Origin: Hydrurus foetidus
Lineage: Eukaryota
DNA length: 64,000 bases
Direction of reading: 5' to 3'
Assembly: GCA_900617105.1 (NCBI GenBank)
Contig: UYFQ01000723.1
Span: 1-64,000 of the forward strand
Positions 1 to 19,324 of this stretch are shown in pieces. Both the position numbers and the translations under genes were made by a program. The notes below the pieces were generated by a model. It was not told the origin of the DNA. It ran no database searches and saw nothing but the letters and a program-made list of their open reading frames with translations. Position 1 is the first letter of the stretch; each line of letters opens with the position of its first letter.

Positions 1-65
1 TATTTTAAATGCGTTTTGTCTGTCTGCTAAATGTTGATTCAACTGGATCGGCTAAACTTGCTTGC

Positions 66-248
66 AACGAAAAAGGCTTGGCGTTGTTGGGGAATTCCGT
101 CCGCCCATAACCGAAGCCCAATGATTGCAATATTGCTGATGTTTTATTCATAAGCCAAATTTATAACGTCAAGCCCGAACTGAAGCACAATAAAGAACAA
201 ATGTTGAGGCAATATTCGTCAAGCCCCAATAATGCCAAACCTAATGTT
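66..248. repeat. attC-like array repeat 1
   Basis: AACGAAAAAGGCTTGGCG...GCCAAACCTAATGTT; about 7 bp shorter internally than other copies. Confidence 0.95.
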
Positions 249-259
249 GTGTGCCGTAA

Positions 260-740
260 TTATTCGTCCATAAAGTCACTTCCAAATAAAGTATAATCCT
301 ATTTGCCCTTCACTTTAGCTTTGTCCATAAAAAATGAGACATCTCTTTATTCCTTTTGTTTGTTTGTCCATTAAAACATAGCAATTTCTCCAACGTCATT
401 GTCAATGTCAAACTTACTTTTTGTCGAAACCTACTGAAAAGAGTTTTTAACATTTTCAAAATAAAGTCTTGAACTCAACTGTCATAAATCAAAGTCTATA
501 TGTAATGTCTAATATTTTTAATGACTGCCTCAAGTCTAACCTACTCCTCCAATTAAACTCAAAACACCTGAAGACTAGGCTTGATTTTCTATTTCTTTTT
601 GTAATATTCAATTCCATTGTCGCCCTTTGTCAACATAAGTCAGTTTTGAAACTTTACGAAAACTGTCCATCATTGAAATAGATAATTTTGACACGTCAAC
701 ATTAAAGAATATTCATTGAGTTGTTGAGTAAAAGTCATTG
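260..740 (-). CDS. Cassette B hypothetical protein (frameshifted; limits approximate)
   Basis: Fragmented minus-strand reading ending ...FGSDFMDE* beside the cassette end; no family recognised. Confidence 0.35.
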
Positions 741-811
741 TCTGTGTAATGAAATTTGTCGTCAAAATGATAGAAATATGTAGATTATTTTGTATTCTTA
801 TTATGGCACAC

Positions 812-994
812 AAAAGGCTTATGTTTGTTGGGAATTAGCATTCCGTCAGCCCATAACCGAAGCCCAATGATTGCAATATTGCTGATGTTTTATTCATAAG
901 CCAAATTTATAACGTCAAGCCCGAACTGAAGCTCAATAAAGAACAAATGTTGAGGCAATATTCGTCAAGCCCCAATAATGCCAAACCTAATGTT
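812..994. repeat. attC-like array repeat 2
   Basis: Same repeat; left end garbled (caaaaggcttatg). Confidence 0.9.
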
Positions 995-1021
995 GCACGT
1001 TGTTTTGTCGGTCTGACAATC

Positions 1022-1520
1022 TTAAATTCAACCGATACTTGTTTTTAAAATTCCAAGTTGTCTGTCTTGGTACCAAAATTTAGGACTCGTATTTGATAAT
1101 ATACAACCTGGTAAGTTTCTACTTGTCCTTTGTCAGCAAGTAATTAATTTCTTCCTGTTTTCCAAACAAGCAATTTGTATTGTCTTTTTTATGGCAAAAT
1201 GCTTGACTTGTACAAATTGTCAAAAAGTCTGTGTGAATTTTAAAGTTAATTGTTGTCCTAACAATTGGTCTGTGTCCAAGTTATAAATTTTGCTTTCTTT
1301 CTCGTCATTCAAAACGCAGTAAAAAGTTTTCTTTGGGGTTTGAAGTGTCAAGCGATAAATGTCTAAAACCTTCAATATTGATTGTGTCATTGAGAAAGGA
1401 AAACAAAAAAGCTTTTCTAAAAGATGATGAACCATTAATCATAACCTTTTTGTCCAACTTATTTTGTCCAAACAAAGTTGTCGAAAGTGTGATTAGTATT
1501 GTTAAATGAGTGGTCCTTAT
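1022..1520 (-). CDS. Cassette C (copy 1) secreted hypothetical protein
   Basis: Signal-peptide-like LILTILITLSTTLFGQ; near-identical to 7414-7925. Confidence 0.6.
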
Positions 1521-1530
1521 AAATGCGTGC

Positions 1531-1716
1531 AACGAAAAGGCTTGGCGTTTGTTGGGGAATTAGAATTCCGTCTGCCCATAACCGAAGCCCAATGATTGCA
1601 ATATTGCTGATGTTTTATTCATAAGCCAAATTTATAACGTCAAGCCCGAACTGAAGTACAAAGAACAAATGCTGAGGCTATATTCGTCAAGCCCCAATAA
1701 TGCCAAACCTAATGTT
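1531..1716. repeat. attC-like array repeat 3
   Basis: AAC at 1531 to GTT ending 1716. Confidence 0.95.
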
Positions 1717-1732
1717 AGTGGTGGCGTTTTGT

Positions 1733-2365
1733 TTTAGTTTGTCTGAATTTCACAATTGTACATAGTCCAATTTATGTTTAGTATTTGTCGGTCTTTTATT
1801 ATTGTTTATTTTTTTTGTTATAGACTTCAAGTATTGCTCCTAAAACAGAATTGTTTTGTCATACTTATTTACTTTGCTGAATGTAAATATTGTCATTATT
1901 TCATTCTCGTATCTGTCAATTTCGTTGCTATTAATAATTTGATATAAACTTTCATCGTTTTTTTCTGTTAGAATTGATTTTTCAGCTCTATAATCTTATC
2001 GAATACTGTGTCATCATACTGCTATTCAAAAACTGAAACCAAATTGTCCTTCTAAAGTCTCAAGTCTCTACTAAGGAACAATAAGCTTTGTCCTTTTGTC
2101 AGAATTTGAAACTTTAAATCATATCAAGCTCTCTCCAACAACTGGTATATGTTTGATGTCATAATGGAGTTTGTAAATCTTATAGAATTGGTTTTCAAGT
2201 GTAGTCAAGTTTCTTTGCGTTATAACATCTGTCAAAAGCTGCTATAGAAAGTTCTTTTCAATATTATCAGGGTCGATTGATTCAATGATTTTGCAAAGTT
2301 CAAATGAATCACAATTGCCATTTTCTTTTTCATGTGTTGTAAAAAACAATTGTAATGTTAAACAT
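1733..2365 (-). CDS. Cassette D (copy 1) hypothetical protein
   Basis: Near-identical to 5698-6340 but with more indels. Confidence 0.6.
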
Positions 2366-2411
2366 TGATTTCTTTATAAAATTGAGGATGTAAGTCATTT
2401 TACGTTGCCGC

Positions 2412-2600
2412 AACGAAAAAGGCTTGGCGTTTGTTGGGGAATTAGTATTCCGTCTGCCCATAACCGAAGCCCAATGATTGCAATATTGCTGATGTTTTAT
2501 TCATAAGCCAAATTTATAACGTCAAGCCCGAACTGAAGCACAATAAAGAACAAATGTTGAGGCTATATTCGTCAAGCCCAATAATGCCAAACCTAATGTT
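2412..2600. repeat. attC-like array repeat 4
   Basis: AAC at 2412 to GTT ending 2600. Confidence 0.95.
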
Positions 2601-2610
2601 GGTAGTAGTT

Positions 2611-3130
2611 TTATTCTTCATCGTTTTGTCAAAAATTAATCGCTAAATTACTATTGACAGCAAGTTCAAATCGCTTTCCAAGTTTAATTTTTCAGTTCTC
2701 TCAAAAGCTATATTGCCAATTTCTAATAAAGCTGGATTTAGTTTGTCCAACATTTTGCCCGATGAAATTTCTTCCAATTGTCCTTTTTATACTTTTATAT
2801 GTTAAATTCTTCAAAATTTCTCAATTCAAATTCTGCTGGATTACAAAGTCGACTACCATTTAATGGTTTAAATAATTCTGCTTGTTCAAAAATCTTTGTT
2901 TGCCATATGTTCGTCATATAATACTTCTTATTCCGTTGATTTGACTTTTCAACTGATTTTAATTGAGTTTGTCTTTCTGTCAAAATTAATTGAACTTTTA
3001 CAGCAGCGTTAGGGTCAGTCCAAATATTTATAGTATAAATTTTAAAATCTGATATTCTTTTTACTATTCTACTAAATGCTTTGTCAACTAAAATACTCAT
3101 TTCAGTTATGTACAAAGTCTTGTCAAAACT
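2611..3130 (-). CDS. Cassette E hypothetical protein (limits approximate)
   Basis: ORF 2795-3187 (...FKIYTINIWTDPNAA...LCNPAEFELRNF) continues in another frame to the cassette end. Confidence 0.5.
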
Positions 3131-3185
3131 TGATTTAAAAAATTGAATAAATATTAGGAATTTTTGGGTCTTTAAAAATTGCACC

Positions 3186-3373
3186 AACGAAAAAGGCTTG
3201 GCGTTGTTGGGGAATTAGATTCCGTCTGCCCATAACCGAAGCCCAATGATTGCAATATTGCTGATGTTTTATTCATAAGCCAAATTTATAACGTCAAGCC
3301 CGAACTGAAGCACAATAAAGAACAAATGTTGAGGCTATATTCGTCAAGCCCCAATAATGCCAAACCTAATGTT
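3186..3373. repeat. attC-like array repeat 5
   Basis: AAC at 3186 to GTT ending 3373. Confidence 0.95.
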
Positions 3374-3384
3374 GGCTGCAGTAT

Positions 3385-3920
3385 TTATTTTCTTTGAAAT
3401 AGTTCAATAATTTGTTCTTTGTCGAAACAGATAAGCTTTAAAACATTCTCTCCCCAATGGTTTGATTTAATTGCCAACTCATTTGTGAAATTGAATTTAA
3501 CTATACCACCTTTTAACATTGTCATTTGACTCTGTCTTAGCAAAGGTGTCAACTCAATTATTCTATCAAAATGAAGACTTGTGTCTTTGTTTAATCGCTC
3601 TGAAATATGCACACCATTTATTGAAGGAACCCAATGTCCTTTATAACCAATGTCCAAAAATTGTGTATGAAATTAATGATGTCGCATTAAACAAATTCAA
3701 CTTGTTTCTAAAATTTTTACCTTAAACTGTCAATATGGATACTGTCTTTGATTTGTCCACCAATCCAATTCATATGTGGTGGTAACTTCATTTTTAGGTT
3801 TCTTTGGTTCTGTTGATAAAATATTTTGTTTACCAAAGTCTGTTGTATAAAAGTAAATAATACTTAGTCCAATAATAACTATTGCAAAAATTATCAATAT
3901 CCATTTAATAAGTTTTCTCT
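3385..3920 (-). CDS. Cassette F membrane-anchored hypothetical protein
   Basis: N-terminal hydrophobic stretch KWILIIFAIVIIGLSIIYFY; C-terminal part is ORF 3385-3657. Confidence 0.55.
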
Positions 3921-3932
3921 ATAATTGCTGCC

Positions 3933-4122
3933 AACGAAAAAGGCTTGGCGTTTGTTGGGGAATTAGTATTCCGTCTGCCCATAACCGAAGCCCAATGATT
4001 GCAATATTGCTGATGTTTTATTCATAAGCCAAATTTATAACGTCAAGCCCGAACTGAAGCACAATAAAGAACAAATGTTGAGGCTATATTCGTCAAGCCC
4101 CAATAATGCCAAACCTAATGTT
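3933..4122. repeat. attC-like array repeat 6
   Basis: AAC at 3933 to GTT ending 4122. Confidence 0.95.
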
Positions 4123-4149
4123 GTTGCTTTGGTCAACCAGACGAAAGCT

Positions 4150-4625
4150 ATTGAAATAATTTTATAACCTGTCAATCATTGTCATATCTACGCTTTTACT
4201 TTTCTTTTTAGTCAAATAAATAAACTTTCCATAGTTCGTCTAAATTAGTCAAGTTTATTAACTCTTGTTTTTGTCTGCGTAAATAAACTTCAAAACTTCT
4301 TCCCGTTACAATCAATCGTTTTCAATTTTACTGTCAAGAAATCTTTGTGTCTCGTTTAAATAAAAAGCATAGTCGTCAGCACCAACATAAAAAATCTTCT
4401 CCCAACTCTTTTTCCTTTTGCAATTTGTAAACTGTCTGCATCTCTACTATTACTGCACAAGTTTGGTCTACAACTAAGTGTCAGTATTAACAGTTTTGTC
4501 TCTACTTGGTAGTTGCATTTTTGTTGTGTCAATTTGGTTATTGTCATTATTAGATGCTTGATTGCAAGATGCAAACATAGTCAGTCCAAAAAATAATGTC
4601 TTTGAAGTAAAGTTGAAAGTGTCAT
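4150..4625 (-). CDS. Cassette G putative lipoprotein (frameshifted)
   Basis: Stitched reading ...TLFFGLTMFASCNQASNNDNNQIDTTK... contains a lipobox-like FASC. Confidence 0.55.
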
Positions 4626-4676
4626 TTTATGTTTTGATTTTATTGCAAGTTTTGGTGGTCAAATAAAGTTGCAGCC

Positions 4677-4866
4677 AACGAAAAAGGCTTGGCGTTTGTT
4701 GGGGAATTAGAATTCCGTCAGCCCATAACCGAAGCCCAATGATTGCAATATTGCTGATGTTTTATTCATAAGCCAAATTTATAACGTCAAGCCCGAACTG
4801 AAGCACAATAAAGAACAAATGTTGAGGCAATATTCGTCAAGCCCCAATAATGCCAAACCTAATGTT
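4677..4866. repeat. attC-like array repeat 7
   Basis: AAC at 4677 to GTT ending 4866. Confidence 0.95.
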
Positions 4867-5489
4867 GCAAGCAGGTTTTCTTTCCTGTCGTTCTATTTTG
4901 TGTTCCTTTCAAACTAAAACCAGTTTCAATTTGTGAATGAGTTTTGTCGAACCCAAACAAGTTTTAAACATATAAATAATTACAAAATTTTTCTACGAGT
5001 TGTTCTTTGTCAAACCACAACAAAACTGCAAATGGTGAGCAAGATTTGAATTTATAAACTTCTGTTTTCTTTGTCAACTTGCAGCAATTTCAAAACCTAA
5101 AAACAAGTCTAAATTACGTCTGCTTAAAATGGTCAGTATCTTTTACTCAACTCGTCAGTATGTTTTGCCAAACTCATCAGTATCTTTTACAAACTCGTCT
5201 ATATGTTTTTGAACCTTGCTTTTGTTCTTGTTTGTTGCAGCATTTAGTCAAGCAATTTTGTCTGCACTTGGTGATTGTCCAACCAATTTTGTTATGTCCT
5301 GCTTTTTAGACTTTAGCAAAAGTCCACCAAGAACAAAAGATGAAAAAGAACTGATGCCCTAAAAACTACGAAAGCCAAATTGAAAAACAAAAGTTGATGT
5401 GGGCTTTGGCTCAAGTCTTACCAGATATTTTAAATGCGTTTTGTCTGTCTGCTAAATGTTGATTCAACTGATCGGCTAAACTTGCTTGC
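4867..5489. other. Cassette A (apparently ORF-less); further copies at 6575-7195 and partially at 1-65
   Basis: No minus-strand ORF of 60 aa or more in either full copy; plus-strand ORFs are short and unconvincing; 3 x ~22 bp tandem at 5132-5199. Confidence 0.6.
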
Positions 5490-5679
5490 AACGAAAAAGG
5501 CTTGGCGTTTGTTGGGGAATTAGTATTCCGTCTGCCCATAACCGAAGCCCAATGATTGCAATATTGCTGATGTTTTATTCATAAGCCAAATTTATAACGT
5601 CAAGCCCGAACTGAAGTACAATAAAGAACAAATGTTGAGGCTATATTCGTCAAGCCCCAATAATGCCAAACCTAATGTT
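5490..5679. repeat. attC-like array repeat 8
   Basis: AAC at 5490 to GTT ending 5679. Confidence 0.95.
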
Positions 5680-5697
5680 AGTGGCAGGCGTTTTGTT

Positions 5698-6340
5698 TTA
5701 GCTTGTCTGAATTTCACAATTGTACATAGTCCAATTTATGTTTAGTATTTGTCGGTCTTTGATATTGTTTATTTTTTTGTTATAGACTTCTTATGGGCTG
5801 TCTTCTAAAACAGAATTGCTTTGTCATACTTATTTACTTTGCTATAACTGTAAATATTGTCAATTATTTCATTCTCGTATCTGTCAATTTCTTTGTCGCT
5901 GTTATTAATAATTTGATATAAACTTTCATCGTTTTTTCTGTTAGAATTGATTTTTCAGCTTCTATAATCTTATCGAATACTGTGTCAGACATACTGCTAT
6001 TCAAAAACTGAAAACCAAATTGTCCTTCTAAAGTCTCAAGTCTCTCTACTAAGGAACAATAAGCTTTGTCCTTTGTCAGAATTTGAAACTTTAAATCAAT
6101 ATCAAGCTCTCTTCCAACAACTGGTATATGTTTGATGTCATAATGGAGTTTGTAAATCTTTATAGAATTGGTTTCAAGTGTAGTCAAGTTTTGCAAGTTA
6201 TAACATCTGTCAAAAGCTGCTATAGAAAGTTCTTCAAATATTATTTCAGGGTCGATTGATTCAATGATTTTGCAAAGTTCAAATGAATCACAATTGCCAT
6301 TTTCTTTATGTGTTGTAAAAACAATTGTAATGTTAAACAT
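5698..6340 (-). CDS. Cassette D (copy 2) hypothetical protein, possibly TraB/ChaN-like fold
   Basis: ORF 5864-6340 MFNITIVFTTHKENGNC...PEIIFEEL, with a frameshifted C-terminus (YDKAILF...AH); the fold call is a motif-level guess. Confidence 0.65.
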
Positions 6341-6384
6341 TGATTTCTATAAAATTGAGGATGTGTCATTTTACGCTTGCCGCT

Positions 6385-6574
6385 AACGAAAAAGGCTTGG
6401 CGTTTGTTGGGGAATTAGAATTCCGTCAGCCCATAACCGAAGCCCAATAATTGCAATATTGCTGATGTTTTATTCATAAGCCAAATTTATAACGTCAAGC
6501 CCGAACTGAAGTACAATAAAGAACAAATGCTGAGGCAATATTCGTCAAGCCCCAATAATGCCAAACCTAATGTT
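6385..6574. repeat. attC-like array repeat 9
   Basis: AAC at 6385 to GTT ending 6574. Confidence 0.95.
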
Positions 6575-7195
6575 GCAAGCAGGTTTTCTTTCCTGTCGTT
6601 CTATTTTGTGTTCCTTTCAAACTAAAACCAGTTTCAATTTGTGAATGAGTTTTGTCGAACCCAAACAAGTTTTAAACATATAAATAATTACAAAATTTTT
6701 TCTACGAGTTGTTCTTTGTCAAACCACAACAAAACTGCAAATGGTGAGCAAGATTTGAATTTATAAACTTCGTTTTCTTTGTCAACTTGCAGCAATTTCA
6801 AAACCTAAAAACAAGTCTAAATTACGTCTGCTTAAAATGGTCAGTATCTTTTACTCAACTCGTCAGTATGTTTTGCCAAACTCATCAGTATCTTTTACAA
6901 ACTCGTCTATATGTTTTGAACCTTGCTTTTGTTCTTGTTTGTTGCAGCAATTTAGTCAAGCAATTTTGTCTGCACTTGGTGATTGTCCAACCAATTTTGT
7001 TATGTCCTGCTTTTTAGACTTTAGCAAAAGTCCACCAAGAACAAAAGATGAAAAGAACTGATGCCCTAAAAACTACGAAAGCAAATTGAAAAACAAAAGT
7101 TGATGTGGGCTTTGGCTCAAGTCTTACCAGATATTTTAAATGCGTTTTGTCTGTCTGCTAAATGTTGATTCAACTGATCGGCTAAACTTGCTTGC
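6575..7195. other. Cassette A, second full copy
   Basis: Near-identical to 4867-5489. Confidence 0.6.
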
Positions 7196-7385
7196 AACGA
7201 AAAAGGCTTGGCGTTTGTTGGGGAATTAGTATTCCGTCTGCCCATAACCGAAGCCCAATGATTGCAATATTGCTGATGTTTTATTCATAAGCCAAATTTA
7301 TAACGTCAAGCCCGAACTGAAGCACAATAAAGAACAAATGTTGAGGCTATATTCGTCAAGCCCCAATAATGCCAAACCTAATGTT
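7196..7385. repeat. attC-like array repeat 10
   Basis: AAC at 7196 to GTT ending 7385. Confidence 0.95.
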
Positions 7386-7413
7386 GCACGCCGTTTTGGT
7401 CGGTCTGACAATC

Positions 7414-7925
7414 TTAAATTGTCAACCGATACTTTGTTTTAAAATTCCAAGTTGTCTGTCTTACAATAAAATTTAGGACTCGTATTTGATAATATACAAC
7501 CTGCAAGTTTCACTTGTCCTTTGTCAGCAAGTGCAATTAATTTCTTCCCAGGTTTTCCATAAACAAAAGGAATTACATTGTCTTTTTATGGCAAAATGGG
7601 CAAAGTTTTGACTTGTACAAATTGTCAAAAAGTCTGTGTCAGGAATTTTAAAGTTAATTGTTGTGTCTAACAATTGGTCTGTGTCAAGTTATAAATTTTG
7701 CTTTTCTCGTCATTCAAAACGCAGTAAAAGTTTTCTTTTGGGGTTTGAAGTGTCAAGCGATAAATGTCTAAAACCTTCAATATTGATTGTGTCATTGAGT
7801 AAAGGGAAAACAAAAAGCTTTGTCAAAAGATGATGAACCATTAATCATAACCTTTTGTCCAACTTATTTTGTCCAAATAAAGTTGTCGAAAGTGTGATTA
7901 GTATTGTTAAAATGAGTGGTCTCAT
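7414..7925 (-). CDS. Cassette C (copy 2, leader-proximal) secreted hypothetical protein
   Basis: ATG at 7925: MRPLILTILITLSTTLFGQNKLDK... Confidence 0.65.
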
Positions 7926-7937
7926 AAAATGGCGTGC

Positions 7938-8075
7938 AACTCAAAATATACGCATTGCCATTTTGCCAAATATTTTTGAGTCTAAATAATTGTTTTCAAT
8001 CAATGTTTGCAAATATGTACGTAGTTTCAAAACTACGTACATTTCAATATTTTTTCAACTACGTACATTTCAATA
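7938..8075 (-). promoter_or_regulatory. Array leader: attI-like junction plus candidate Bacteroidota promoter with operator-like repeats
   Basis: The final AAC (7938) is not followed by a repeat. Minus strand has TTG (8056-8058), 20 bp spacer, TAGTTTTG (8028-8035). There is a 13 bp inverted repeat at 8015-8042 and a 19 bp direct repeat at 8031 and 8057. Confidence 0.55.
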
Positions 8076-8102
8076 GTTGTATTTTTTCTTACTACTTTCT
8101 AT

Positions 8103-8441
8103 TTAAGGCTTCGCCTTTCCCATCAATCTATTGCTTCCTTCAAGGTTGCCACTTGTATTTTTAGGTTTTCATTTTCTTTTTGCAAAGCTTCAACATCGGC
8201 ATTGGGTATGGGTGCATTGCTTGGTGGCAGGTGGTTTAGCTGTGCTGCTATTTGTTCAAAAAATTATAGTTTAGCACTTGACAAATTTTAAATAGGGTAT
8301 CTATTTTGGCATTGGGATTTTTAACAAATCCTTCAACAGCACTGGCACCAATACCCATTTGCTTTGCCCAACCTGCTTTAAAAATTCTTTTTCTTTTACA
8401 TAAGCATTTAGCATATTGCCTATATGGGGAGATTCTATCAT
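8103..8441 (-). CDS. XRE-like helix-turn-helix protein with C-terminal coiled coil
   Basis: Stitched MIESPHIGNMLNAYVKEKRIFKAGWAKQMGIGASAVEGFVKNPNAKIDTLFKICQVLNYNF...LQKENENLKIQVATLKEAI. Confidence 0.7.
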
Positions 8442-8600
8442 TTTTATGCAATTTATTCACTAAAATTATAATAAAATTGTGATTTTTGTGCATTTTATTA
8501 TAAATAATAACAATTTAATTATATTAAAATTGAATTTAATTATATAATTATTAAATTTTATTTATTATTATTAGAATTAAATTGACCATTTTTATAATTA

Positions 8601-8642
8601 AATTAGGTTTAAAAGTGAATTAAATTCACTTTAAACCTAATT
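8601..8642. terminator. AT-rich palindrome (terminator or operator)
   Basis: AATTAGGTTTAAAAGTGAAT / ATTCACTTTAAACCTAATT just downstream of the 8666-9157 gene. Confidence 0.4.
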
Positions 8643-8665
8643 AATTTAGTTACAACCTAATTTAA

Positions 8666-9157
8666 TTATGGATTTGGTGTGCTTTGTCTGCCACCACCAT
8701 TGTTTTATATCTTTCCTTTAGTTTCCTGCCCTGGTTTGTGCACCTGCAACACCTGCATCTGCCAGGTTTTGATATTGTTCATAAAATACATTGGCTACTT
8801 TATAGCTTTCGGCAGCTACCACTCGTTTGGTTTGCTGCACTCTTGTTATTTGTGCCATCAACCAATTTTCGCTGTCTAATTGTTCAAAAAACTAACATCT
8901 TTAACCAACTCGGGGGCTAGTGCTGCATAGGCTGGTGGCAGCATTGCGTAAGCCTTCGGCATCGGTTACTGCCACAGCATCTTTTACAAAAACATAATTA
9001 TCTACATCAATACTGGGTGTGCATCTTCCTCCTCTTTTGTAAGGGTAACTGTTTTGCCGTTAATAATACCACTGTATGTGGTGTGGGCTGTGCCAAGCGA
9101 TGTAAGCTCGGCAGCAGTAAACGTGTTGCTAACACGATTGACATTAATGTTTGCCAT
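8666..9157 (-). CDS. Hypothetical alpha-helical protein (~160 aa)
   Basis: MANINVNRVSNTFTAAELTSL...SIDVDNYVFVKDAV...AESYKVANVFYEQYQNLADAGVAGAQTRAGKLKERYK (stitched). Confidence 0.7.
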
Positions 9158-9388
9158 AATTTCTTTGTTTTAAATGATTTAATAAATTAACAAGGCAAAA
9201 ATGAAAATTTGGTTTGATATTTTTGGGTGTTTTCACCCAAAATCATTGGGTGAAAACACCATTGTTTAAGCACAAAAAATATCTTATGCAAATTTTTAAT
9301 AATAGATAATCTCTTGAATAATTCGTCTCTCCGTCTATAGAAGAAGTCTTTAAACAATTCTGTTAGGTTGGCGTTTACACAAAGAAGA

Positions 9389-9420
9389 AAAAGGCTACTT
9401 TAAAAGAGGTAGCCTTTTTT
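9389..9420 (+). terminator. Rho-independent terminator-like hairpin
   Basis: AAAAGGCTAC...GTAGCCTTTTTT. Confidence 0.55.
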
Positions 9421-9543
9421 ATTACTTAAAACTGTGAATAATGTAATTAATAGCAGTTCTACTGTAACAAAAAGCACCATAATCAACAGCTTTGCAATAG
9501 TGATTTAACCAAAAACATATTACAAACACTAAAAACATACAAA

Positions 9544-10205
9544 ATGAAAACTTCAAAATTTTATTAATAACTGTTCTATCGATTAGCATTATTTCTACTA
9601 GCTGTAAATCGTGGAATAAATCTCAAAAGGTGCAGCCATTGGTGTTGCTGGTGGTGGTGCAGTTGGTGCAGTTGTTGGCAAAATTGCTGGCAATACTGCA
9701 TTGGGTGCTATTATTGGTGCATCGGTTGGTGGCGTTACAGGTGCAGTTATTGGACACAAAATGGATAAACAAGCAGCAGAAATGCAAAGAATATTCACGA
9801 TGCAAAAGTGGTGAGAGTGGGCGAAGGAATTGTGATTGAGTTTACAGCAAAATTTTATTTGGTGTAAATGAATCTAATCTTTCAACAGAAGCTCAAGGTA
9901 ATTTGGATAAATTAATTGTTGTGCTTCAAAAATATCTGATACCAATATTGAAGGACAAGGACACACAGACAACACAGGCTCGGCAAGTTATAATCAAACT
10001 TTGTCTGAACGCAGAGCTGCTGCTGTTTCAAACTATTTATCTCTAGTGGCATTGCTGCTTCAAGGCTTACTGTTAAAGGGTTTGGAGAAAAACACCTAAA
10101 TATGACAATAGTACAGAAGATGGGCAAGCACAAAATAGAAGGGTTGAATTTTTAGTTACAGCTAACGAAAAATGAAAGCAGAAACAAATAGAAGCAGGGA
10201 AGTAA
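9544..10205 (+). CDS. OmpA-family lipoprotein (glycine zipper plus OmpA C-terminal domain)
   Basis: KGAAIGVAGGGAVGA...MDKQAAE; GHTDNTGSASYNQTLSERRAAAV; NRRVEF. Confidence 0.9.
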
Positions 10206-10280
10206 TTGATAATTAAAAGTTGATAATTGACAATTAACCAATACAAACTTATTATTTCCTATTCACTACTAACACTAAAA

Positions 10281-10475
10281 ATGAACATAAAAAGAATTTT
10301 TGGAGCATTGCTAACAGCACTAGGCATAGCTGGACTTATTTATACGGCAATCTTATTTGTTAATAGCTCTTCTAATGGAGGCGTAACATTAAAACTCTTA
10401 TTACTTATGGCATACTTGGCTTGCTGTTTTTATTGCTGGAATTAATTTAGTTAGAACAACAAAGACGAATCATAA
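10281..10475 (+). CDS. Small two-TM membrane protein
   Basis: MNIKRIFGALLTALGIAGLIYTA...LVRTTKDES*. Confidence 0.75.
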
Positions 10476-10484
10476 TTAATAAAT

Positions 10485-10888
10485 ATGGAAAACAATTTAA
10501 ATGAAACTACTACACCACATCGCTCTGAAGTAGATCATACCATAGATGGAAGTCTTATAAAATTGACATTCACGAGTTCATTAATCAAATAAAGAACGAA
10601 AAACAATGGATGGAGGGCGATAGAAACGCTATTACTGTTTTAAAACAAATAGCAAGTATTGTGCTAGTGGGCTGCACAAAATGCTACAATGCCTAAACAT
10701 AAGGTTGATGGCACACTTAGTTTACACATATTAGATGGGGCTATACAAGTGGTAACTAATGAACAATCTGTTGATTTAAGCAAGGGCAAATGTTGGCATT
10801 AAATACATCTTTTGAGCATAGTATTTTAGCTACAGAAGAACCATTTTTGTTAACGCTTACAACCACGCCTGCAAGATTTATTGATTAA
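10485..10888 (+). CDS. Cupin-domain protein
   Basis: W..GDRNAITVFK...MPKHKVDGTLSLHILDGAIQV...HSILATEE. Confidence 0.75.
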
Positions 10889-10939
10889 GTTTTAATATCT
10901 TATTTTTTAATAGTCACATTTATTAAACCTTAAAATTTT

Positions 10940-11691
10940 TGTTTGTTTATATCAAAATATTTTTAATAATGTTAGTAGTATCTCACAGTTTACTATCGGG
11001 GTTTTAAGGAAGTTTTTATGCTCCTTACAGAAATAAAGGTTTATAAAACAATGCTACAACATTGGGTATAAATCTTTACCGTTAGTGTCTGATTACTGGT
11101 TTTATAATGGGGCTTGTATTAACACTACAATCTCGTCCAACATTAGCAGAGTTTGGTGCAGAATCCTGGTTGCCAGGTATGGTGGCACTTTCTTTAATAA
11201 AAGAAATTGCTCTGTTGTTGCTCTTGTTTGTTGCAGGAAAAATAGCATCGGTATTGGTGCAGAACTGGGCTCTATGAAGGTTACAAGAGCAAATTGATGC
11301 AATGGAAGTATCAGCTATTAATCACTTATAATTATTTGGTTGTTACCAAATTTTAGCAACCATTAATGATTCCTTTACTAGTTGTTTTTGCAGATGGCGT
11401 TGGAATTATTGGTGGTTATGTGGGCGTTAATATTCACAGTGATGTAAATATGATTCGTTACACCAATCAAGTGCTAGAGTCTATTGATTTTATTGATGCA
11501 ATACCTGCACTTATTAAAACTTTTTTCTTTGGATTTTTCATTGGATTGGTGGTTTGCTACAAAGTTTACAGCAGCTAATGGCACAGAGAGTGTTGGTAAA
11601 GCTGCTAATTCAGCAGTTGTTGTTGCATCGTTAAGTGTGTTTATCATAGATATGTTGGCGGTTCAAATTGTTGATCTTTTTATTAAAATAA
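10940..11691 (+). CDS. mlaE: MlaE-family ABC transporter permease (start approximate)
   Basis: SGIGAELGSMKVT.QIDAMEV; GTESVGKAANSAVVVAS. Confidence 0.85.
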
Positions 11692-12445
11692 ATGATAACT
11701 GACGAAAAAATATTACAAAAAGATACAGAAATTGTTATAGATATTAAGAGATTATAAATCTTTTGGTGAAAACAATGATGTATTAAAAGGCGTTAACCTA
11801 TCTGTAAAGAAAGGTGAAAATTTGGTTGTCATTGGCAAGTCAGGCTCTGGAAAATCTATTACCATCAAATGTTTGGTAAGATTAGTAGAAGCAGACAAAG
11901 GTGAAATAAAAGTATTTGATACAGATGTTACTAAACTTACTAATGCCGAACTGAATGCCATTAGAATAAGAGTGGGTTTTGTTTCAAAATGCGGCTTTAT
12001 ATGATTCTATGACAGTGAGGAGAATTTATCTTTTCCACTGAAACGGCATTCAAAAAGTTATCGGCAGATGAAATAGAAAAAGCCATTATTGAGACTTTAA
12101 AAGTGTTGGACTTGAAGAAGCAATTGATAAAATGCCATCTGAATTGTCGGGTGGAATGCGTAAAAGAATTGGTCTTGCACGCACCTTGATTTTAAACCAA
12201 AATTATTTTGTATGATGAACCAACAACGGGTTTAGACACTATAACTTCAAGAGAAATTAGTAATCTTATCTTGGAAATTCAAAAGAAAAACAAAACAACT
12301 TCTCTTATTATAACACACGATATGGCTTGTGCTAAATTAACCGGAGATAGAATTGTTGTGTTAAAAGATGGAGTTGTTATACTGAAGGAACATACGAAGT
12401 TTAGAAAAAAGTGAAGATGAATGGGTACGTTCATTCTTCGCTTAA
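11692..12445 (+). CDS. mlaF: MlaF-family ABC ATP-binding protein
   Basis: Walker [31 protein letters not shown]. Confidence 0.9.
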
Positions 12446-12467
12446 ATTATTACTAAATACCAAAGAA

Positions 12468-13264
12468 ATGAAAAAAGAAAATGGGTTTTATGGAAACTAG
12501 GAATGTTTGTAGCAATAGGTTTATTGCTGCTTGTATCAACAATATATTTTATTGGTAAACGACAAAATATGTTTGGTTCAACCTTTTCATTTAAAAAGCA
12601 AATTTACAACCGTTAGTGGATTAAAATTGGGCAATAATGTTAGATTCTCTGGCATTAATGTGGGCACTGTAAACAATATAGAAATACTATCAGACACTTC
12701 TGTTTTAGTAGAGGTTGTGATAAAAAAGAAATACAAAATTCATTAAAACAAATGCACTGGCAAGTATTGGCAGTGATGGTTTAATGGACGATAAAGTATT
12801 AATGGTATCACCAGGTATATATGATGATTCTATTGTTTATTCGCCAATAAAAGATAGTGCTTTATTGCCACAAAAGTGCTGTTGAAATGGATGACATTAT
12901 GTATAGTGTAAAAAACAGTGTAGATAATGTAGATATTATTACCAGCGAATTAGCAGAGTTTACTAAATTAAATAATGCAAAGGAGCTTTGTCTAAGTTAA
13001 TGACAGATGAAAAGTTTGGTAGCAAACTTGATGCAACGATGAATAATTTACAAGCAGTTCAAAGGATTGAGTGAAAATATGGAGGCTGCTAAACACAACT
13101 TTTATTAAGAGGTTTCTTTAAGAAAAAAGAAAAAGAGCTACAAAAAGAAAGAAGAAGAAGCTAAGAAAATAGAGGATGCTAAGAAACAAGTAGAAAAAGA
13201 TAAAAACAGACAGATAGAGAGAAGAAAGAGGTTAAAGACAATAATTAAAATAATACCACAATAG
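12468..13264 (+). CDS. mlaD: MlaD/MCE-family protein
   Basis: VSGLKLGNNVRFSGINVGTV; ASIGSDGLM; Lys/Glu-rich tail. Confidence 0.85.
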
Positions 13265-13301
13265 TTAAGAGCAGGTTTTATCATTAGTTTATTAAATTTA
13301 A

Positions 13302-13713
13302 ATGAACAACAGTAAAACAAATTTTAGAAAGTAAACCTTCATATTTTAATGTGGTTACACCAAACACGTCAGTAATAAATGCTTTGCAAGTAATGAAAAG
13401 AGAAATCTGAGCTATGTTGTTGTGATGTTTGAGGAGAATTTTCAGGGTGTGATGAGTGAAAAGACTATTCACGCAAAGTAATTCTTGAGGGCAAAATTCA
13501 ACCGATACTCAAGTAAAAGAAATTATGCTAGCGATATTCCTTTGTTGACGTTAACGATACATCTGACAAGTGCCTGCACAACAATGGATGCTTTTAAAGT
13601 TAGGTGTTTACCAGTGCTAGATGACCAACATTTTGGAGGAATTATTACACTGCGATATAATGAGAGGTATGCTCTATCGAAAAAATCAATGCAAATTCTT
13701 TGAAGTTGTTTAA
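13302..13713 (+). CDS. CBS-domain protein
   Basis: VKQILESKP...TPNTSVINALQVMK...GVMSEKDYSRKVIL...LPVLD. Confidence 0.7.
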
Positions 13714-13960
13714 TGATGATTATTAAACAAGAGCAGAAATTTGGTTGCATTTTTAACATTATATAACATTACAAGCAAATCTTTATAATAAAAGGTCTTT
13801 AGTGTTATAATGTATATAAATCAACCTAAATCAGTAGTTTTAGATTTGTTGTTTATTAAATAATAAAAATTCTTCGCACATTATAGCATACATTTACCGA
13901 ATACTGGATGCTTTTTTAGTTAATAAAGAGTGTTCGTTATAATTTTCAACTGCAAAATAA

Positions 13961-16900
13961 TTGCGAAATAAACAACACTTTTACCCAATACCCCAAAGAC
14001 TATTTCTAAAAACACCAGGCAAAAATCTTCTCTTCACAAAACAATACTACTGTAGTAAATTCATTTACTGTTGTTGCAATTGGTGCATCAGCAGGAGGTT
14101 TAGAAGCCATTACACAATTTCTGCAAAGCCTCTCTCCTACTACAGGTATGGCATATATTTATGTGCAGCACCTCAGCCCAGATCATAAAAAGTATTTAAG
14201 TGAACTGCTTTCAAAGACCACAAAAATGAAAGTGCAGGATGTGGAAGATATGGACAAGATAGAACCAACAGTGTTTATGTAATTCCCTACAACAAAGCAA
14301 TTGAAGTAACTGATGGGCATATAAAATTATTACCACGACCATCAAAATCTTATATTCTTAGCATTGATATTTTATTTTCTTCTTTAGCCGAAACGCATAA
14401 AGAAAACGTGATTGGCATTGTACTTTCGGGCAGTGCAAATGATAGCACACAAGGATTAAAGAAATTAAAACTGCTGGAGGAATCACTTTGCACAAGATTC
14501 AGCAAAATATAGTAGTATGCCAAAATCTGCCATTGCTGCTGGTGTGGTTGATTTTATTTTGTCACCAAAAGACATTGCTAAGAAATTAAACTGGATGAGC
14601 AAGCATCCTTTAATTAAAAGAAATGGTGTAAAAATTTACCCGAAGATGAAATTGATAATAACAATCTTGACCTGAAATTTATACTGCAACTTTTATATAA
14701 AAAGAATGTAGATTTTAGTTATTATAAAATGAACACCATTAAACGAAGGATTTTGCGAAGAATGGTGATACATAAAATTGCTTTAAAACAATATGCAAAG
14801 TATGTAGAAGAGGAAAGTAATGAAGTGAATTTATTGTATGAAGATTTGCTAATTAACGTTACCGAATTTTTAGAGACCGAAGCTTTTTATTGTTAAAGAA
14901 AACAGTATTACCTCGATTACCAAAAGCAAAACACAAGGCGAAGCATTGCGTATTTGGTGGCTGCTTGTGCCACAGGCGAGGAGAGTGTATTCTTTGCAAT
15001 GCTATTATTTGAAATACAAGATAATAAAATTAAACCATTCCTTTTCAGATTTTCGCTTCCGATTTAAGTGAGGGTGCCATTGCAGAAGCCAGGATTGGCG
15101 AGTATTCTGATGAACAACTTAAAATGTTTCTGCAAAAAGATTGCAACGTTTTTTACCAGAGTAAAGATAAATATCGTGTTTCAAAATTGCTGCGAGATGT
15201 GTGCATTTTGCCCACACAATATTTTAAACGACCCTCCATTTTCAAGAATGGATTTAATAAGTTGCCGTAACTTGTTGATTTATTTTGAACTGCCTGCACA
15301 AAAAGCCCTAACAACTTTTCATTACGCACTCAACGATAATGGTTGTTTAATGTTGGGCAAATCAGAAACCATTGGCTCATCTGCTCATTTATTTACTACG
15401 CCTCTTAATAAAAAATAAAATATATACCCGAAAAATAGTTCAGGTAACAACAGATTAACTGATATTACACCTCGTATTCTTCAAAATTCAATTGAGAAAA
15501 GTATCAATACAATTCCAAAATTACCGGCAACAAATGGTAATCTTAGCAATGCTTTCGATTCTTTTTACTTGCTCAGTATATGCCAGCAAGTGTGGTTATT
15601 ATATCGTGATTTAGAGATTTTGCAATTAGAGGTGCAACATCATTGTATCTTCAAAATGCTTCGGGCAAAGCCAGTTTAAATATCTTAAAAATGGCTCATA
15701 TTGAATCACATTTGAGCTTCGTAATGCCATTCATCACTCCATAAAAACAAAACAAACCGTTCGCAAAACAGGCATCGAAATGAATAGAATAAGTGATGGT
15801 TTGTTGAAAATTGTGAACAGAAGTATCGCCACTTAAAATAGAAGGAGAAGAAGATTTATTAGTTATTGTTTTACAGCAGAGCAACCAAAAAGATCATTGA
15901 CCAAAATAATAAAATGGTAATAGCAATTCCATTGCAAAAATAGAAGAATAAAAAGTTGGAAGAAGAAATTTCCGCTGCTCGTTTGATATGGCTTCTATTA
16001 CCCAAGATCAAGAAGCTGCTAACGAAGAACTGCAAAGTGCCAATGAAGAAATTGTTTCGAGCAATGAAGAATTGCAAAGTTTAAACGAAGAACTAGAAAC
16101 ATCAAAAGAAGAAATAGAATCTACCAATGAAGAATTGATTACTACCAACCAAAATTACAGGCACGCATTCAACAGGTAGAATTGTATAATTACAATCAAA
16201 TTATTCTTGATACCATTCACGAGCCAATGCTCATTCTTGATAAAAATATTCGTATCAAATCTGCCAATAAATCCTTCTGCAAAGCCTTTCACGTTTCAGA
16301 AGAAGAAAGCATTGGAATATCTTTATACAAACTGGGAAATAACCAATGGAACATTCCACGTCTGCGTGAATTAGTAGAAGAAATTATCCCCTAAAACAAT
16401 CGTTTTCAAACTTTGAAGCAGAACATACTTTTCCTGTTATTGGTCATAAATAATGTTGTTAAATGCACATCGCATTATTCAAAAAAGCAATAATGAAAGA
16501 ACTAATCGTACTATCAATTATTGATATTACAGATACAAGAAAATTAGCACTTGCACTACAAGAAAAAGAAAAGAAAATATTAGAGTTCAGTTGGAAGCCG
16601 AGAAAAAAGAAAAAATAATTGAAGACAGCGAGAACGCTACAATATGATGCTGATGCAATCGCCCTATGCCTTTGCAATATTAAAAGGGAAAGACAAAGTG
16701 ATTACACTTGCCAACGACCGTGTGAAAGAAATGGGGAAAAGGAAATGATGTAGAAGGTAAACCATTTCTTAAATTGCTACCCGAATTAAAAAAACACCCT
16801 TATCCTGCTTTGCTTGATGAGGTATATGCCACAGGTATTCTTATCAAAATGCCGAATCTCCAGCATCTATTGTACGCAATGGAATTGTTGAAACAAGTTA

Positions 16901-18600
16901 TTTTAATTTTGTTTATCAGCCCTATCATGAAGCAGATGAAACCATATCGGTGTTACTATTATTGCTATAGAAGTAACAGCTGATGTGGTGGTTAAAAGCA
17001 CTGGAAGCCCAACATAATGCAGAAAAAAAGAAAAGAAATTTTAGTAAAAACAAGTGAGCATTTTAATAGATTGGTAAAAGATTGCCTGCTGCTGTTTACT
17101 CTTGCGATGCAAAATGGATTTATCAATTTTTATAACGATGCAGCAGTTGAAGTTTGTGGTTATAAACCCAAATTGGCAAAGACCTTTGGTGTGGTTTTAT
17201 AAAATTTTTAATATTGATGTTACAGTTGTACCATTAGATAAATACCAATGGCAATGGCATTGCAAGAAGGTCGTAGTATGATGGGTGAGGAAATAATTAT
17301 TGAAAGACCCGATGGCAGCCAACGCCACGTATTGGTACATCCACAGCCACAGTTTGGCTTAGATGGCGAAATTATTGGTGCTATTAATATGGTAATTGAT
17401 ATTACTGATGAAGTGATAGCAAAAATGAATTAATAGTAGCTAAAAGCAAAGCAGAACAAAAACACAAATTGCAGAAGATGCAGTAAAAGCAAAGCAGCAA
17501 TTTTGAGCAATATGAACGAAATTCGCACACCAATGAATGCCATTATTGGTTTTACGAATGTGCTGTTAAAAACAAATTTAGATGAATCTCAAAAGAATAT
17601 CTCAATGCCATTAAAATTTCTGGCGATGCATTAATTGTTCTAATCAATGATATTTTAGACCTTACTAAAATAAATTCTGGTAAAATGACCTTTGAGCAAA
17701 CACAGTTTGATTTAAAGTATTCCATTACTACCATTCTGCAATTATTCAACCAAAAGTTAAAGAGAACAATGTTGAATTGATTAAGGAATACGACAATAAT
17801 ATTCCTTCCATTTTATTGGGTGATCCACTTCGCTTACATAAATATTATTAAACCTTTTAAGCAATGCTGTAAAGTTTACTAAAGAAGGTACCATAACAAT
17901 TTGTGTTAAAATATTGAATGAAGATGCTGAAAAATAACTATTGAATTTTTCGCTCTGTGATACTGGTATTGGCATCCCTGCAAATAAACTAAAACATTTT
18001 CAACAGTTTTGAACAAGCTTCACAGGAACCTCTCGTTCTTATGGAGGCTCTGGTTTGGGGCTAGCCATTGCAAAACAATTGGTGGAATTACAAGGTGGTA
18101 ATATTAGTGTAACCAGCAAAGTGGGCAAAGGCTCAATCTTTGTATTTACACTTGATTTTATGAAAGTAAATGCGTTGCCATACAGCAAGCAGAGCAAGCA
18201 AATAAATTAATTCAAGATGAATCTGCTATAAAGCCACTAACCAAGACTATCAAGGTTTTGGTGGCAGAAGATGTTGCTTTAAATCAATTGCTGATAAAGA
18301 TAATTTTAATGGATTTTGGGTTCGAGTTTGATATTGCAGCCAATGGTAAAAAGCGATTGAACAGTTGCAAAAATAAGTATGATATTATTTTAATGGATTT
18401 GCAAATGCCCGAAATGGATGGCTTTGAACTCACCGATTATATTAGAAACAAACTACAATCTACTATACCAATTATTGCCCTCACAGCAGATGTAACCACC
18501 ATAGATGTGGCAAAATGTTCAGCTATTGGAATGAACGACTATATATCAAAACCAATTGACGAAAAATTGCTTTATAGTAAGATTATAAAAGTATATTTAG
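13961..18600 (+). CDS. CheB-CheR-PAS hybrid histidine kinase/response regulator (many frameshifts; start approximate)
   Basis: Che[24 protein letters not shown]; Che[22 protein letters not shown]; coiled coil [33 protein letters not shown] repeats; H-box [37 protein letters not shown]. Confidence 0.85.
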
Positions 18601-18700
18601 TGAAAATACAAATGTGTGAATTATGCAAGTATCTTTTAGTACTGTGCAATTCTATAACCTTGATGCTAGACCAATTTTGTTGCGTCTATAAAAAATAAAT

Positions 18701-19266
18701 TTGAAACTATTTATAAAATATATGGTCAGCATTCGCTGCAAGATGATGGTGAAAGAAGTGTTGCGAAAGCTTGAACTTCACTTTATTGTTGTTGACTTAG
18801 GCGAAGTAGAGATAATGAAACCATTTCTACAGCACAGCGAGAGCAATTGAAAAAGAGTTATTAGATATTGGGCTGGAACTAATGGATGACAAACGAGCCA
18901 TTTTAATTGAAAAAATAAAAATGCTGTGGTACAAATGGTGCATCATTCTGACACGGAATTACGCGTTAATTTTCACATTACTTAAGTGAAAAACTCGACT
19001 ACGATTATACTTATATGGCGAACCTTTTTCTGAAGTACAAGGTATTTGAACATTTCATAATTTCATAAAGTTGAAAAGATAAAAGAACTAATTATTTATG
19101 GCGAAATTAAGAATTTAACTGAAATTTGGGAAAATGAATTATAGTAGCGTTGCACATTTATCAAATCAATTTAAAAAGCAACAGGATTATCGCCTTCGCA
19201 TTTTAAAAATTTAAAAGATAAAAGAAGCCCAATAGAAGAAATTGAAACACAAACGATAATAATTAA
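18701..19266 (+). CDS. AraC-family transcriptional regulator
   Basis: MKLFIKYMVSIRCKMMVKEVL...YLSEKLDYDYTY...YSSVAHLSNQFK..TGLSPSHFK. Confidence 0.85.
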
Positions 19267-19324
19267 AAGTAAAGTATTAGAACATTTTAAGTTTATAAAT
19301 CGGTAAGATTAAACGAAAATTGAT

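Follow-up and report, generated by a model that had tools for sequence, protein, structure and literature searches.

A probable integron-like cassette array of Bacteroidota, likely served by a tyrosine recombinase other than IntI, the gene of which is absent from the array head

A stretch of 64,000 nucleotides (positions 1 to 64,000 of contig UYFQ01000723.1, assembly GCA_900617105.1, deposited under the eukaryote Hydrurus foetidus), referred to below as the window, most probably carries the head of a Bacteroidota cassette array, which is likely integron-like and likely driven by a tyrosine recombinase other than IntI that is missing at this locus. Judged from sequence, the system would be integron-like in layout, cores and inferred crossover, and would fall outside the IntI/attC systems by the integrase insertion, the core, the site size and the extrahelical bases. 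The Bacteroidota origin of the DNA, proposed in a first-pass annotation of the window, is borne out by the flanking genes, which are 73-77% identical to metagenome-assembled genomes (MAGs) of Chitinophagaceae. Positions 9339-13728 are 77% identical to one such MAG (G007), and shorter parts of this region show 73-75% identity to three further MAGs. The window is rich in insertion and deletion errors, and frames are interrupted every 40-150 codons, housekeeping genes included; the genes are fragmented for this reason. Repeats at 16021-21329 resemble coiled-coil sequence and pairs of paralogous genes and have no connection with the array.

The array contains ten copies of a repeat, 183-190 nt long and 95.8-98.4% identical to the copy at 4677, with no eleventh copy in the whole 64 kb. 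The first-pass annotation had described ten near-identical repeats that run from AAC to GTT and separate co-oriented cassettes of one-gene size. All of this was found again, the copy at about 810 having a damaged AAC end: the segments between the repeats measure 542-711 nt, and their reading-frame pieces lie on the minus strand. On the left the array continues beyond the window; its right end, at 7940, has no repeat. The annotation had overlooked three features, namely the self-complementary ends of the cassettes, an attI-like site and the duplication of cassettes. Three segments are duplicated, one in three copies (A) and two in two copies each (B and C).

A 31-letter pattern taken from the repeat end was searched in a genome collection and matched at least 135 stretches, nearly all in records titled as Bacteroidota. 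The site-bearing taxa among the matches listed include Chitinophagaceae, Hymenobacter, Spirosoma, Mucilaginibacter, Flavobacterium and others. Near-identical repeat copies exist in distant genera. Duplicates apart, an iterated profile then found 354 full sites (182-202 nt) and 209 cassettes. Four array-bearing MAG contigs (L031, L049, L068, L091) are titled Bosea, Rhizobium, Limnohabitans or Asaia and are probably mis-titled or mis-binned Bacteroidota DNA. The IMG/VR contig IMGVR_UViG_3300028826_000141 (L001/L002) has at least 11 repeat copies with other cassettes, together with a DDE transposase and an AAA ATPase. The latter two form a block resembling a transposable prophage between two array stretches; a prophage may have inserted into an array here, as opposed to an array being carried by a phage. 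One site of this contig (L002:9839-10025) is a mosaic with ends of the window type and a different middle, the switch falling at an internal repeat motif. A blastn search of the repeat against plasmids gave no match. A degenerate whole-site pattern run over five genomes was uninformative (one match against two control matches), and an Rfam scan of positions 1-12000 returned three chance matches only, far below the gathering scores.

The strongest regularity is found at the cassette ends. In the 209 cassettes, the first 14 bases are complementary to the last 14 of the same cassette, with a fixed mismatch at position 11. Counted from GTT, own-end pairing at positions 4-10 is 0.97, 0.97, 0.96, 0.93, 0.94, 0.93 and 0.78, and at positions 12-14 it is 0.83-0.88. 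With shuffled partners (300 shuffles), pairing at the variable positions is 0.29-0.55; position 8, a near-invariant G:C, pairs at 0.93 in the shuffles as well. Pairing at position 11 is 0.00, the start having A in 97% and the end mostly C. The two flanks of one site pair at chance level only (354 sites). Since the ends of one cassette pair with each other and the flanks of one site do not, the symmetric unit is the circularised cassette, and own-end pairing fits the existence of circular cassettes.

Orientation and order of the cassettes were compared as well. Among 189 self-complementary cassettes outside the window, the longest open reading frame is forward in 174, reverse in four and absent in 11; 13 further segments without self-complementary ends were set aside from this count. 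Start codons lie a median of 41 nt behind GTT, and stop codons a median of 20 nt before AAC. In 13 homologous cassette pairs, the neighbour was kept on none of the 20 testable sides, and cassette order differs between arrays. Twelve homologous pairs gave no clear signal as to which flanking site travels with a cassette; the assignment of the downstream site to the cassette therefore rests on the layout at the docking site. Duplicated cassettes also occur in the arrays of another genome (L073 and L044, both G013). These two loci contain a cassette family of about 200 nt, present at least four times in one genome and too short for a sizeable gene. No site-carrying circle was seen in the assembled contigs of sequencing runs. 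A joint in run X10 that appeared to go back on itself was considered as a circle junction and rejected, being a homologous cassette beside a site. The sequencing-run look-up listed no RNA run, and all shares were below 0.2.

The core of the cassette starts is GTTRNNNGNNA, position 8 being G in 95% and position 11 being A in 97% of the 209 starts, which upholds the GTTRNNNG core named earlier in place of GTTRRRY. GTTRRRY itself occurs in 12 of 193 cassettes and RYYYAAC in 13 of 193, AAC and GTT being retained. The sites are longer than usual attC sites, as had been noted from the window copies, and this holds across the 354 sites (182-202 nt). Related sites of other lineages measure 45-191 nt, with clusters near 124 and 188 nt, and sites of merely 45-85 nt occur in chains. 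Counts from a profile of the ~124-nt sites were not used as evidence because the profile was made from the loci on which it was run.

The fold of the sites was studied in 75 non-redundant sites out of 255. The inner arms pair at 15.4 of 20 positions without gaps, compared with 10.4 for swapped arms, and at least 15 of 20 positions pair without any gap in 53 of the 75. Top-strand mismatches are mostly A.C (93), then T.G (34). The inner stem of about 20 bp covaries, and in 64 of the 75 sites the 3' side of the central spacer exceeds the other by 2-4 nt, so that the imperfect inverted-repeat arms and the unpaired spacer next to AAC/GTT reported by the first-pass annotation have stood. Arm sequences vary freely between sites of one array while mutual complementarity is kept, which points to selection on pairing and not on sequence. 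The single bulged T of the annotation did not hold up: seven of the ten copies in the window have an extra T, but elsewhere it occurs in just 42 of the 98 sites that can be compared, so that it does not count as a conserved extrahelical base. Where the inner stems are imperfect, they contain mismatches instead of bulges. A single site with its flanks, in the array context, folds no better than shuffled sequences (z 0.14 and 0.71). The middle of the site contains a direct-repeat motif at three fixed offsets of about 36-39, 105-108 and 156-159 (343 sites). In a fold model applied to 70 sampled sites out of 190, the outer stem has a probability of 0.82 on the top and 0.88 on the bottom strand of a circle, whereas in the array these values fall to 0.17 and 0.21. 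In 56 of the 70 sites the bottom strand has the more stable fold, by 1.9 kcal/mol on average.

At its right end the array adjoins an attI-like docking region (7938-8090, minus strand) with short direct repeats followed by a conserved end, CG(T/C)ATATTT..GA-GTT. Two docking regions of G007 match it at 94% and 86% identity, and in L174 and L177 the stretch that immediately follows the recombinase gene matches it at 73-78%. The likeness stops at GTT, after which each copy has a different cassette, and eight different cores follow the docking site in eight loci, the window included. The docking site ends in GTT, and the first cassette is attached to it without an intervening site. Upstream of it, on the minus strand, lie a frameshifted gene of the Cro/C1-type helix-turn-helix (HTH) class (8100-8493; HTH_26, E 0.003, below the cut-off) and a gene of no known family (8680-9160), a tblastx homolog of a 164-aa gene located two places upstream of the recombinase in Parasediminibacterium paludis (L026). 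In the latter species, the homolog of the HTH gene directly precedes the recombinase gene, and the order is homologs of both window genes, recombinase, docking site, cassettes. The recombinase gene is thus missing in the window at exactly its syntenic position. Docking regions often adjoin Bacteroidota-specific genes without a Pfam family and an HTH gene (L288, L289, L026 and window 8680-9160). A sigma-70 scan for a Pc promoter that would drive the array gave 8 matches against 5.0 +/- 2.5 in shuffles, Bacteroidota promoters lying outside the models of the tool.

No recombinase gene was detected in the 64 kb by tblastn or by a frameshift-tolerant DNA profile, which in a control with 3% simulated insertions and deletions recovered its target at E 4e-116; its position outside the window had been anticipated in the first-pass annotation. 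No integrase gene lies near the cluster within the 64 kb, and the far end of the array is outside the window. Docking sites without an enzyme are common, with several per genome in G007, G009 and G005, and genome G001 has at least four arrays and one array-type enzyme. The simplest reading is that the recombinase gene was deleted or relocated here and that the array would be served in trans.

The array-linked recombinase was recognised in other genomes. An array of the Mucilaginibacter MAG G002, which consists of a single contig, is headed by a tyrosine recombinase of 366 aa (P0001) on the cassette strand, with a motif resembling window 7938-7960 behind its gene; an ssb gene (L154:11342-11704) lies directly upstream. 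In complete loci, a recombinase of 330-590 aa with an extra N-terminal domain is encoded just upstream of the docking site and on the same strand. Homologs of P0001 (E<=1e-50) were found in 40 of 50 site-bearing genomes, searched out of 68 candidates. The 33 distinct recombinase loci include eight with less than 600 nt downstream. In the 25 others a same-orientation site follows downstream in 18 and lies upstream in none.

An independent draw of 201 Bacteroidota genomes contained 64 with a match at E<=1e-55, and the flanks of 40 of these were examined together with four plasmid loci. A model-free search for self-complementary boxes in these 44 loci gave 53 on the same strand and three on the other downstream (318 kb), and two and six upstream (309 kb). 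In at least 19 genomes of the draw, such cassettes come after a recombinase that has the N-terminal domain. Of 38 scorable loci (two dropped for short flanks), 23 encode an enzyme with this domain, and 19 of them have boxes behind it; of the 15 loci whose enzyme lacks the domain, one has boxes (Fisher p 5e-6, kinship not corrected).

The best match of the enzyme in PDB is VchIntIA (2a3v), both by sequence (E 8.5e-31) and by Foldseek (model with a predicted local distance difference test score, pLDDT, of 85.8). The IntI insertion is absent: 23 aa lie between the aligned blocks, compared with 66 aa in 2a3v, and 39 of 39 array-linked enzymes have a catalytic-domain spacing of 63-71 aa, compared with 108 in nine of nine IntI1-like ones. 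The IntI-specific I2 insertion, for which the first-pass annotation had suggested checking co-occurring tyrosine recombinases, is lacking in the associated family. The enzyme scores 180.6 bits with TIGR02249, below the cut-off of 265; its best NCBIfam model is NF040815 with 195 bits, below the cut-off of 220. IntI (TIGR02249) exceeded its cut-off in none of five site-bearing genomes, two of them single-contig chromosomes. In a quick tree, the array family, IntI and IS91-linked enzymes stand apart from XerC/XerD (Shimodaira-Hasegawa-like approximate likelihood ratio test, SH-aLRT, 99); the base of this tree is open, its IntI sample consists of sequences at least 74% identical to IntI1, and no branching order between IntI and the array family is claimed.

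The N-terminal domain shows a weak likeness to DUF5710 in six of 21 members (best E 4.5e-5; P0001 at 21.6 bits, below the Pfam cut-off of 26.5) and to HARP in one of 21 (E 0.047). HARP domains bind DNA junctions. A PDB profile search with the domain gave no match, and its single-domain model was poor (pLDDT 52.8). In the Atlas it falls into unnamed clusters only and is carried by 2,610 clusters, with one to three copies per enzyme. A 300-aa recombinase of G001 was considered as the array enzyme and rejected, since it accompanies an IS91 transposase and lies inside or at the edge of arrays in the opposite orientation. In the same genome (L147, L148, L150-L153), insertion sequences are found repeatedly in the sites or at their edge: an IS1182, an IS91 that brings a tyrosine recombinase of its own, and two IS110 elements, which insert directly after the internal repeat motif. 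Recombinases of about 280 aa that are close to the array enzymes (L248-L271) form a conserved clade in Bacteroidota; they have neither the N-terminal domain nor an array and lie in housekeeping surroundings.

Within the window all array features lie on the minus strand and are given here from the left edge. The start of a cassette, the third copy of A, exits the window at 1-68 (98.5% identity to 5426-5492 and 7132-7198). It is followed by site 1 (66-248, AAC to GTT, 183 nt) and cassette G (246-812), which has no Pfam family and a full-length homolog of 73.5% in L079, whose border is located at its site. Site 2 (~810-994), with the damaged AAC end, precedes cassette B (992-1533; own ends pair 10/14), a copy of 7383-7940 (B') from which it differs by 13 substitutions and 48 gap columns. 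Site 3 (1531-1716) is followed by cassette C (1714-2414), a copy of 5677-6387 (C') with nine substitutions and 50 gap columns, and site 4 (2412-2600) by cassette F (2598-3188; 10/14), a homolog of which stands beside a site in a contig of run X10. At site 5 (3186-3373) contigs from four sequencing runs stack, and many of them diverge within 12 bases of its GTT. Cassette E (3371-3935; 10/14) has a homolog in a contig of run X5. Beyond site 6 (3933-4122), segment D (4120-4679) has unmatched ends (5/14), one of them without the usual core, and is possibly a hybrid or truncated cassette or a read error.

Site 7 (4677-4866, 190 nt), the reference copy, has inner arms of about 20 bp, unpaired spacers of 4 and 6 nt and internal direct repeats near offsets 39, 109 and 160. 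Cassette A (4864-5492; 13/14, position 11 unpaired), with a homolog in L023, and site 8 (5490-5679) come next. The remaining units are cassette C' (5677-6387; 12/14), third from the docking site, site 9 (6385-6574), cassette A' (6572-7198; 13/14, no substitutions relative to A), second from the docking site, site 10 (7196-7385), and the first cassette, B' (7383-7940; 13/14), joined straight to the docking site. Own-end pairing in the window cassettes thus reaches 13/14 in three, 12 in one and 10 in three, and three are damaged or unmatched.

The following mechanism can be proposed. A circle made of a cassette and its downstream site would be excised by the recombinase and inserted into the docking site at GTT. 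Crossover would be expected within GTT, since the likeness to attI and the identity of the cassette both change at this triplet. The enzyme likely acts on single-stranded DNA in folded form, probably on the bottom strand, in which fixed mismatches and the asymmetric spacer may replace the flipped-out bases read by the IntI insertion. The 14-bp outer arm would be complete only in the circle, so that insertion would be favoured over excision and long arrays would be stable. The window locus has probably lost its recombinase gene by deletion, or the gene was left behind, and the array may be served in trans by an enzyme whose gene lies in another place. Copy-out cycling duplicates cassettes. The three cassettes nearest the docking site copy ones further down, as cycles of copying out and inserting at the front would give.

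A number of observations weigh against an integron-like system with a non-IntI enzyme. No circle, cleavage or recombination was observed, the material searched being assembled contigs. The strand preference of 1.9 kcal/mol is small. Twelve of the 20 neighbour comparisons concern one 200-nt cassette family in one genome. Ten of the 50 site-bearing genomes, mostly fragmented MAGs, have no homolog of the recombinase, and seven of the 25 recombinase loci have no site within 1.2-1.5 kb, three of them showing the docking motif. The comparison of 19/23 with 1/15 lacks phylogenetic independence, one clade comprising 12 of the short enzymes. In VIA-align the archaeal XerA scores much the same (Z 22.3) as VchIntIA (Z 21.2). 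A trans-acting enzyme is unproven in the organism of the window, and its array may be frozen. The window is error-rich, and its duplicates could partly be assembly errors. Carried further, this last point would make the cassette order and the duplicates an artefact of assembling noisy long reads across repeats, the array itself being real. The many insertions and deletions, the 48-50 gap columns between the copies of B and of C, the damage to site 2 and the unmatched ends of D agree with such an artefact. However, the copies also differ by 13 and nine substitutions and have different neighbours, and duplicates are found in the L073 and L044 arrays too. This explanation is very improbable and would in any case leave the cassette system untouched.

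The same cassettes and enzyme could also be used in double-stranded recombination of the lambda or cer style, the internal repeats being arm-type or accessory sites for the N-terminal domain and the hairpin symmetry a by-product. Lambda and cer sites use accessory repeats. The fixed offsets of the internal motif across 343 sites, the lack of a stable fold in the middle of the site, the site lengths near 124 and 188 nt, which differ by about six helical turns, and an enzyme that lacks the IntI insertion and has an extra domain in one to three copies would suit this possibility. It is nevertheless unlikely, as the arms vary within an array and stay complementary, the mismatches are strand-biased and sites of 45-85 nt occur in chains. 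A classical attC cluster that has no integrase (CALIN), with unusually long attC sites and a true IntI elsewhere in the genome, would share the AAC/GTT cores, the unpaired spacer, the gene-then-site layout and the attI-type head of integrons. This explanation is largely refuted and has only a slight chance of being right: GTTRRRY and RYYYAAC are rare in the cassettes (12 and 13 of 193), 182-202 nt exceeds the 57-141 bp given for attC in the available part of PMC3053210, there is no conserved bulge, and TIGR02249 stays below its cut-off in all five site-bearing genomes. The first-pass annotation had left a choice between a divergent, CALIN-like integron and a distinct shuffling system. A divergent or distinct system is supported, whereas a strict CALIN is not, the attC core and size failing and the attI-like head being kept. 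Finally, the repeat might be a miniature inverted-repeat transposable element (MITE) or a repetitive extragenic palindromic (REP)-like element inserting between fixed genes, as the high copy identity in the window and the near-identical copies in distant genera could suggest. This is hardly credible. The flanks of one repeat show no duplication, and their complementarity does not exceed chance; a MITE inserted between fixed genes is excluded because the complementarity belongs to the circularised cassette; the repeats also form same-strand chains behind a docking site and recombinase. The annotation had named fixed gene order and the lack of an associated recombinase as signs against its cassette reading; neither was encountered, with no neighbour conserved in 20 comparisons and a recombinase family present in 40 of 50 site-bearing genomes.

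The cargo of the cassettes includes defence and resistance genes. From the 150 longest of 201 cassette proteins, 12 match PADLOC at E<=1e-6, about seven of them strongly, and the matches include restriction-modification, bSEFIR and candidate systems. Pfam gave no family for the window cassette fragments, nor for two intact homologs. The tigecycline resistance gene tet(X2) of the Riemerella plasmid pRA0511 (NC_019261.1, L274:6280-7620) is a complete cassette of this system, with fully self-complementary ends, the position-11 mismatch and a site of ~127 nt behind it; catB on the same plasmid is reversed inside its cassette. On Acinetobacter plasmids (L202:6050-8180), tet(X3) lies behind a truncated recombinase of the array family and a docking-like site, its ends partly matching and its site cut off. 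The estT-tet(X4) block (L275:1520-3660) begins with a docking-like end and a core. Cassette ends on tet(X) genes offer an explanation of their first mobilisation and would be useful for surveillance.

With moderate confidence, it can be suggested that this is a second phylum-wide gene-capture system of Bacteroidota beside integrons, unseen by IntI/attC searches. Its enzyme would work without the IntI insertion, hairpins being read by mismatches with the aid of the extra N-terminal domain; direction would come from the 14-base self-complementary ends, one enzyme would serve several docking sites per genome, and the system would be a natural vehicle packaging tet(X) and other resistance and defence genes. 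Hardly any integrons of Bacteroidetes have come out of IntegronFinder surveys: the available part of one gives a single complete integron, in Salinibacter (PMC9024848), and that of a study of 540 Elizabethkingia anophelis genomes gives no integrons (PMC11523902). According to a working rule in the accessible text of PMC4889954, recombinases without the IntI insertion beside attC sites are not integron integrases. The cassette system is widespread in Bacteroidota and apparently undescribed: a literature search at the level of titles and abstracts found no description, with supplements and most subscription journals outside the search, so that a description may exist. If the mechanism is true, single-strand cassette recombination does not require the IntI insertion, the origin of integrons becomes testable with a sister enzyme and a large pool of unannotated cassettes is opened.

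Among known systems, the sedentary chromosomal integrons and CALIN arrays are similar in having one-gene cassettes in one orientation with a palindromic AAC..GTT site behind each, a docking site that ends in GTT, repeats that are alike within one host, some cargo genes for defence and insertion sequences landing in sites; VchIntIA of Vibrio cholerae (PDB 2a3v) is the nearest solved enzyme. Unlike integron integrases, the array enzyme lacks the IntI insertion of about 40 aa, which as the intI_Cterm or alpha-I2 region is the integron-integrase criterion in the available part of PMC4889954, and has the extra N-terminal domain. The array sites measure 45-200 nt with modes near 124 and 188, have the core GTTRNNNGNNA, contain mismatches in place of extrahelical bases and are completed by a cassette-specific outer arm of 14 bp, whereas attC sites have the cores RYYYAAC/GTTRRRY and a size of 57-141 bp (PMC3053210, as far as available). 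Related sites of 45-139 nt are near or within this attC size range. Further literature for comparison, available in part, is PMC3607928, PMC8618304, PMC2426708, PMC5458099 and bioRxiv 2024.07.02.601686. The chromosomal integrons of Treponema are described as true intI integrons. XerA, XerC, XerD and the tyrosine recombinases paired with IS91 have the same fold and no IntI insertion. XerC and XerD of the hosts form separate clades in the quick tree (SH-aLRT 99). One IS91-linked enzyme is 35% identical; the IS91-linked enzymes and the short Bacteroidota enzymes of ~280 aa differ from the array family in lacking the N-terminal domain or in heading no array.

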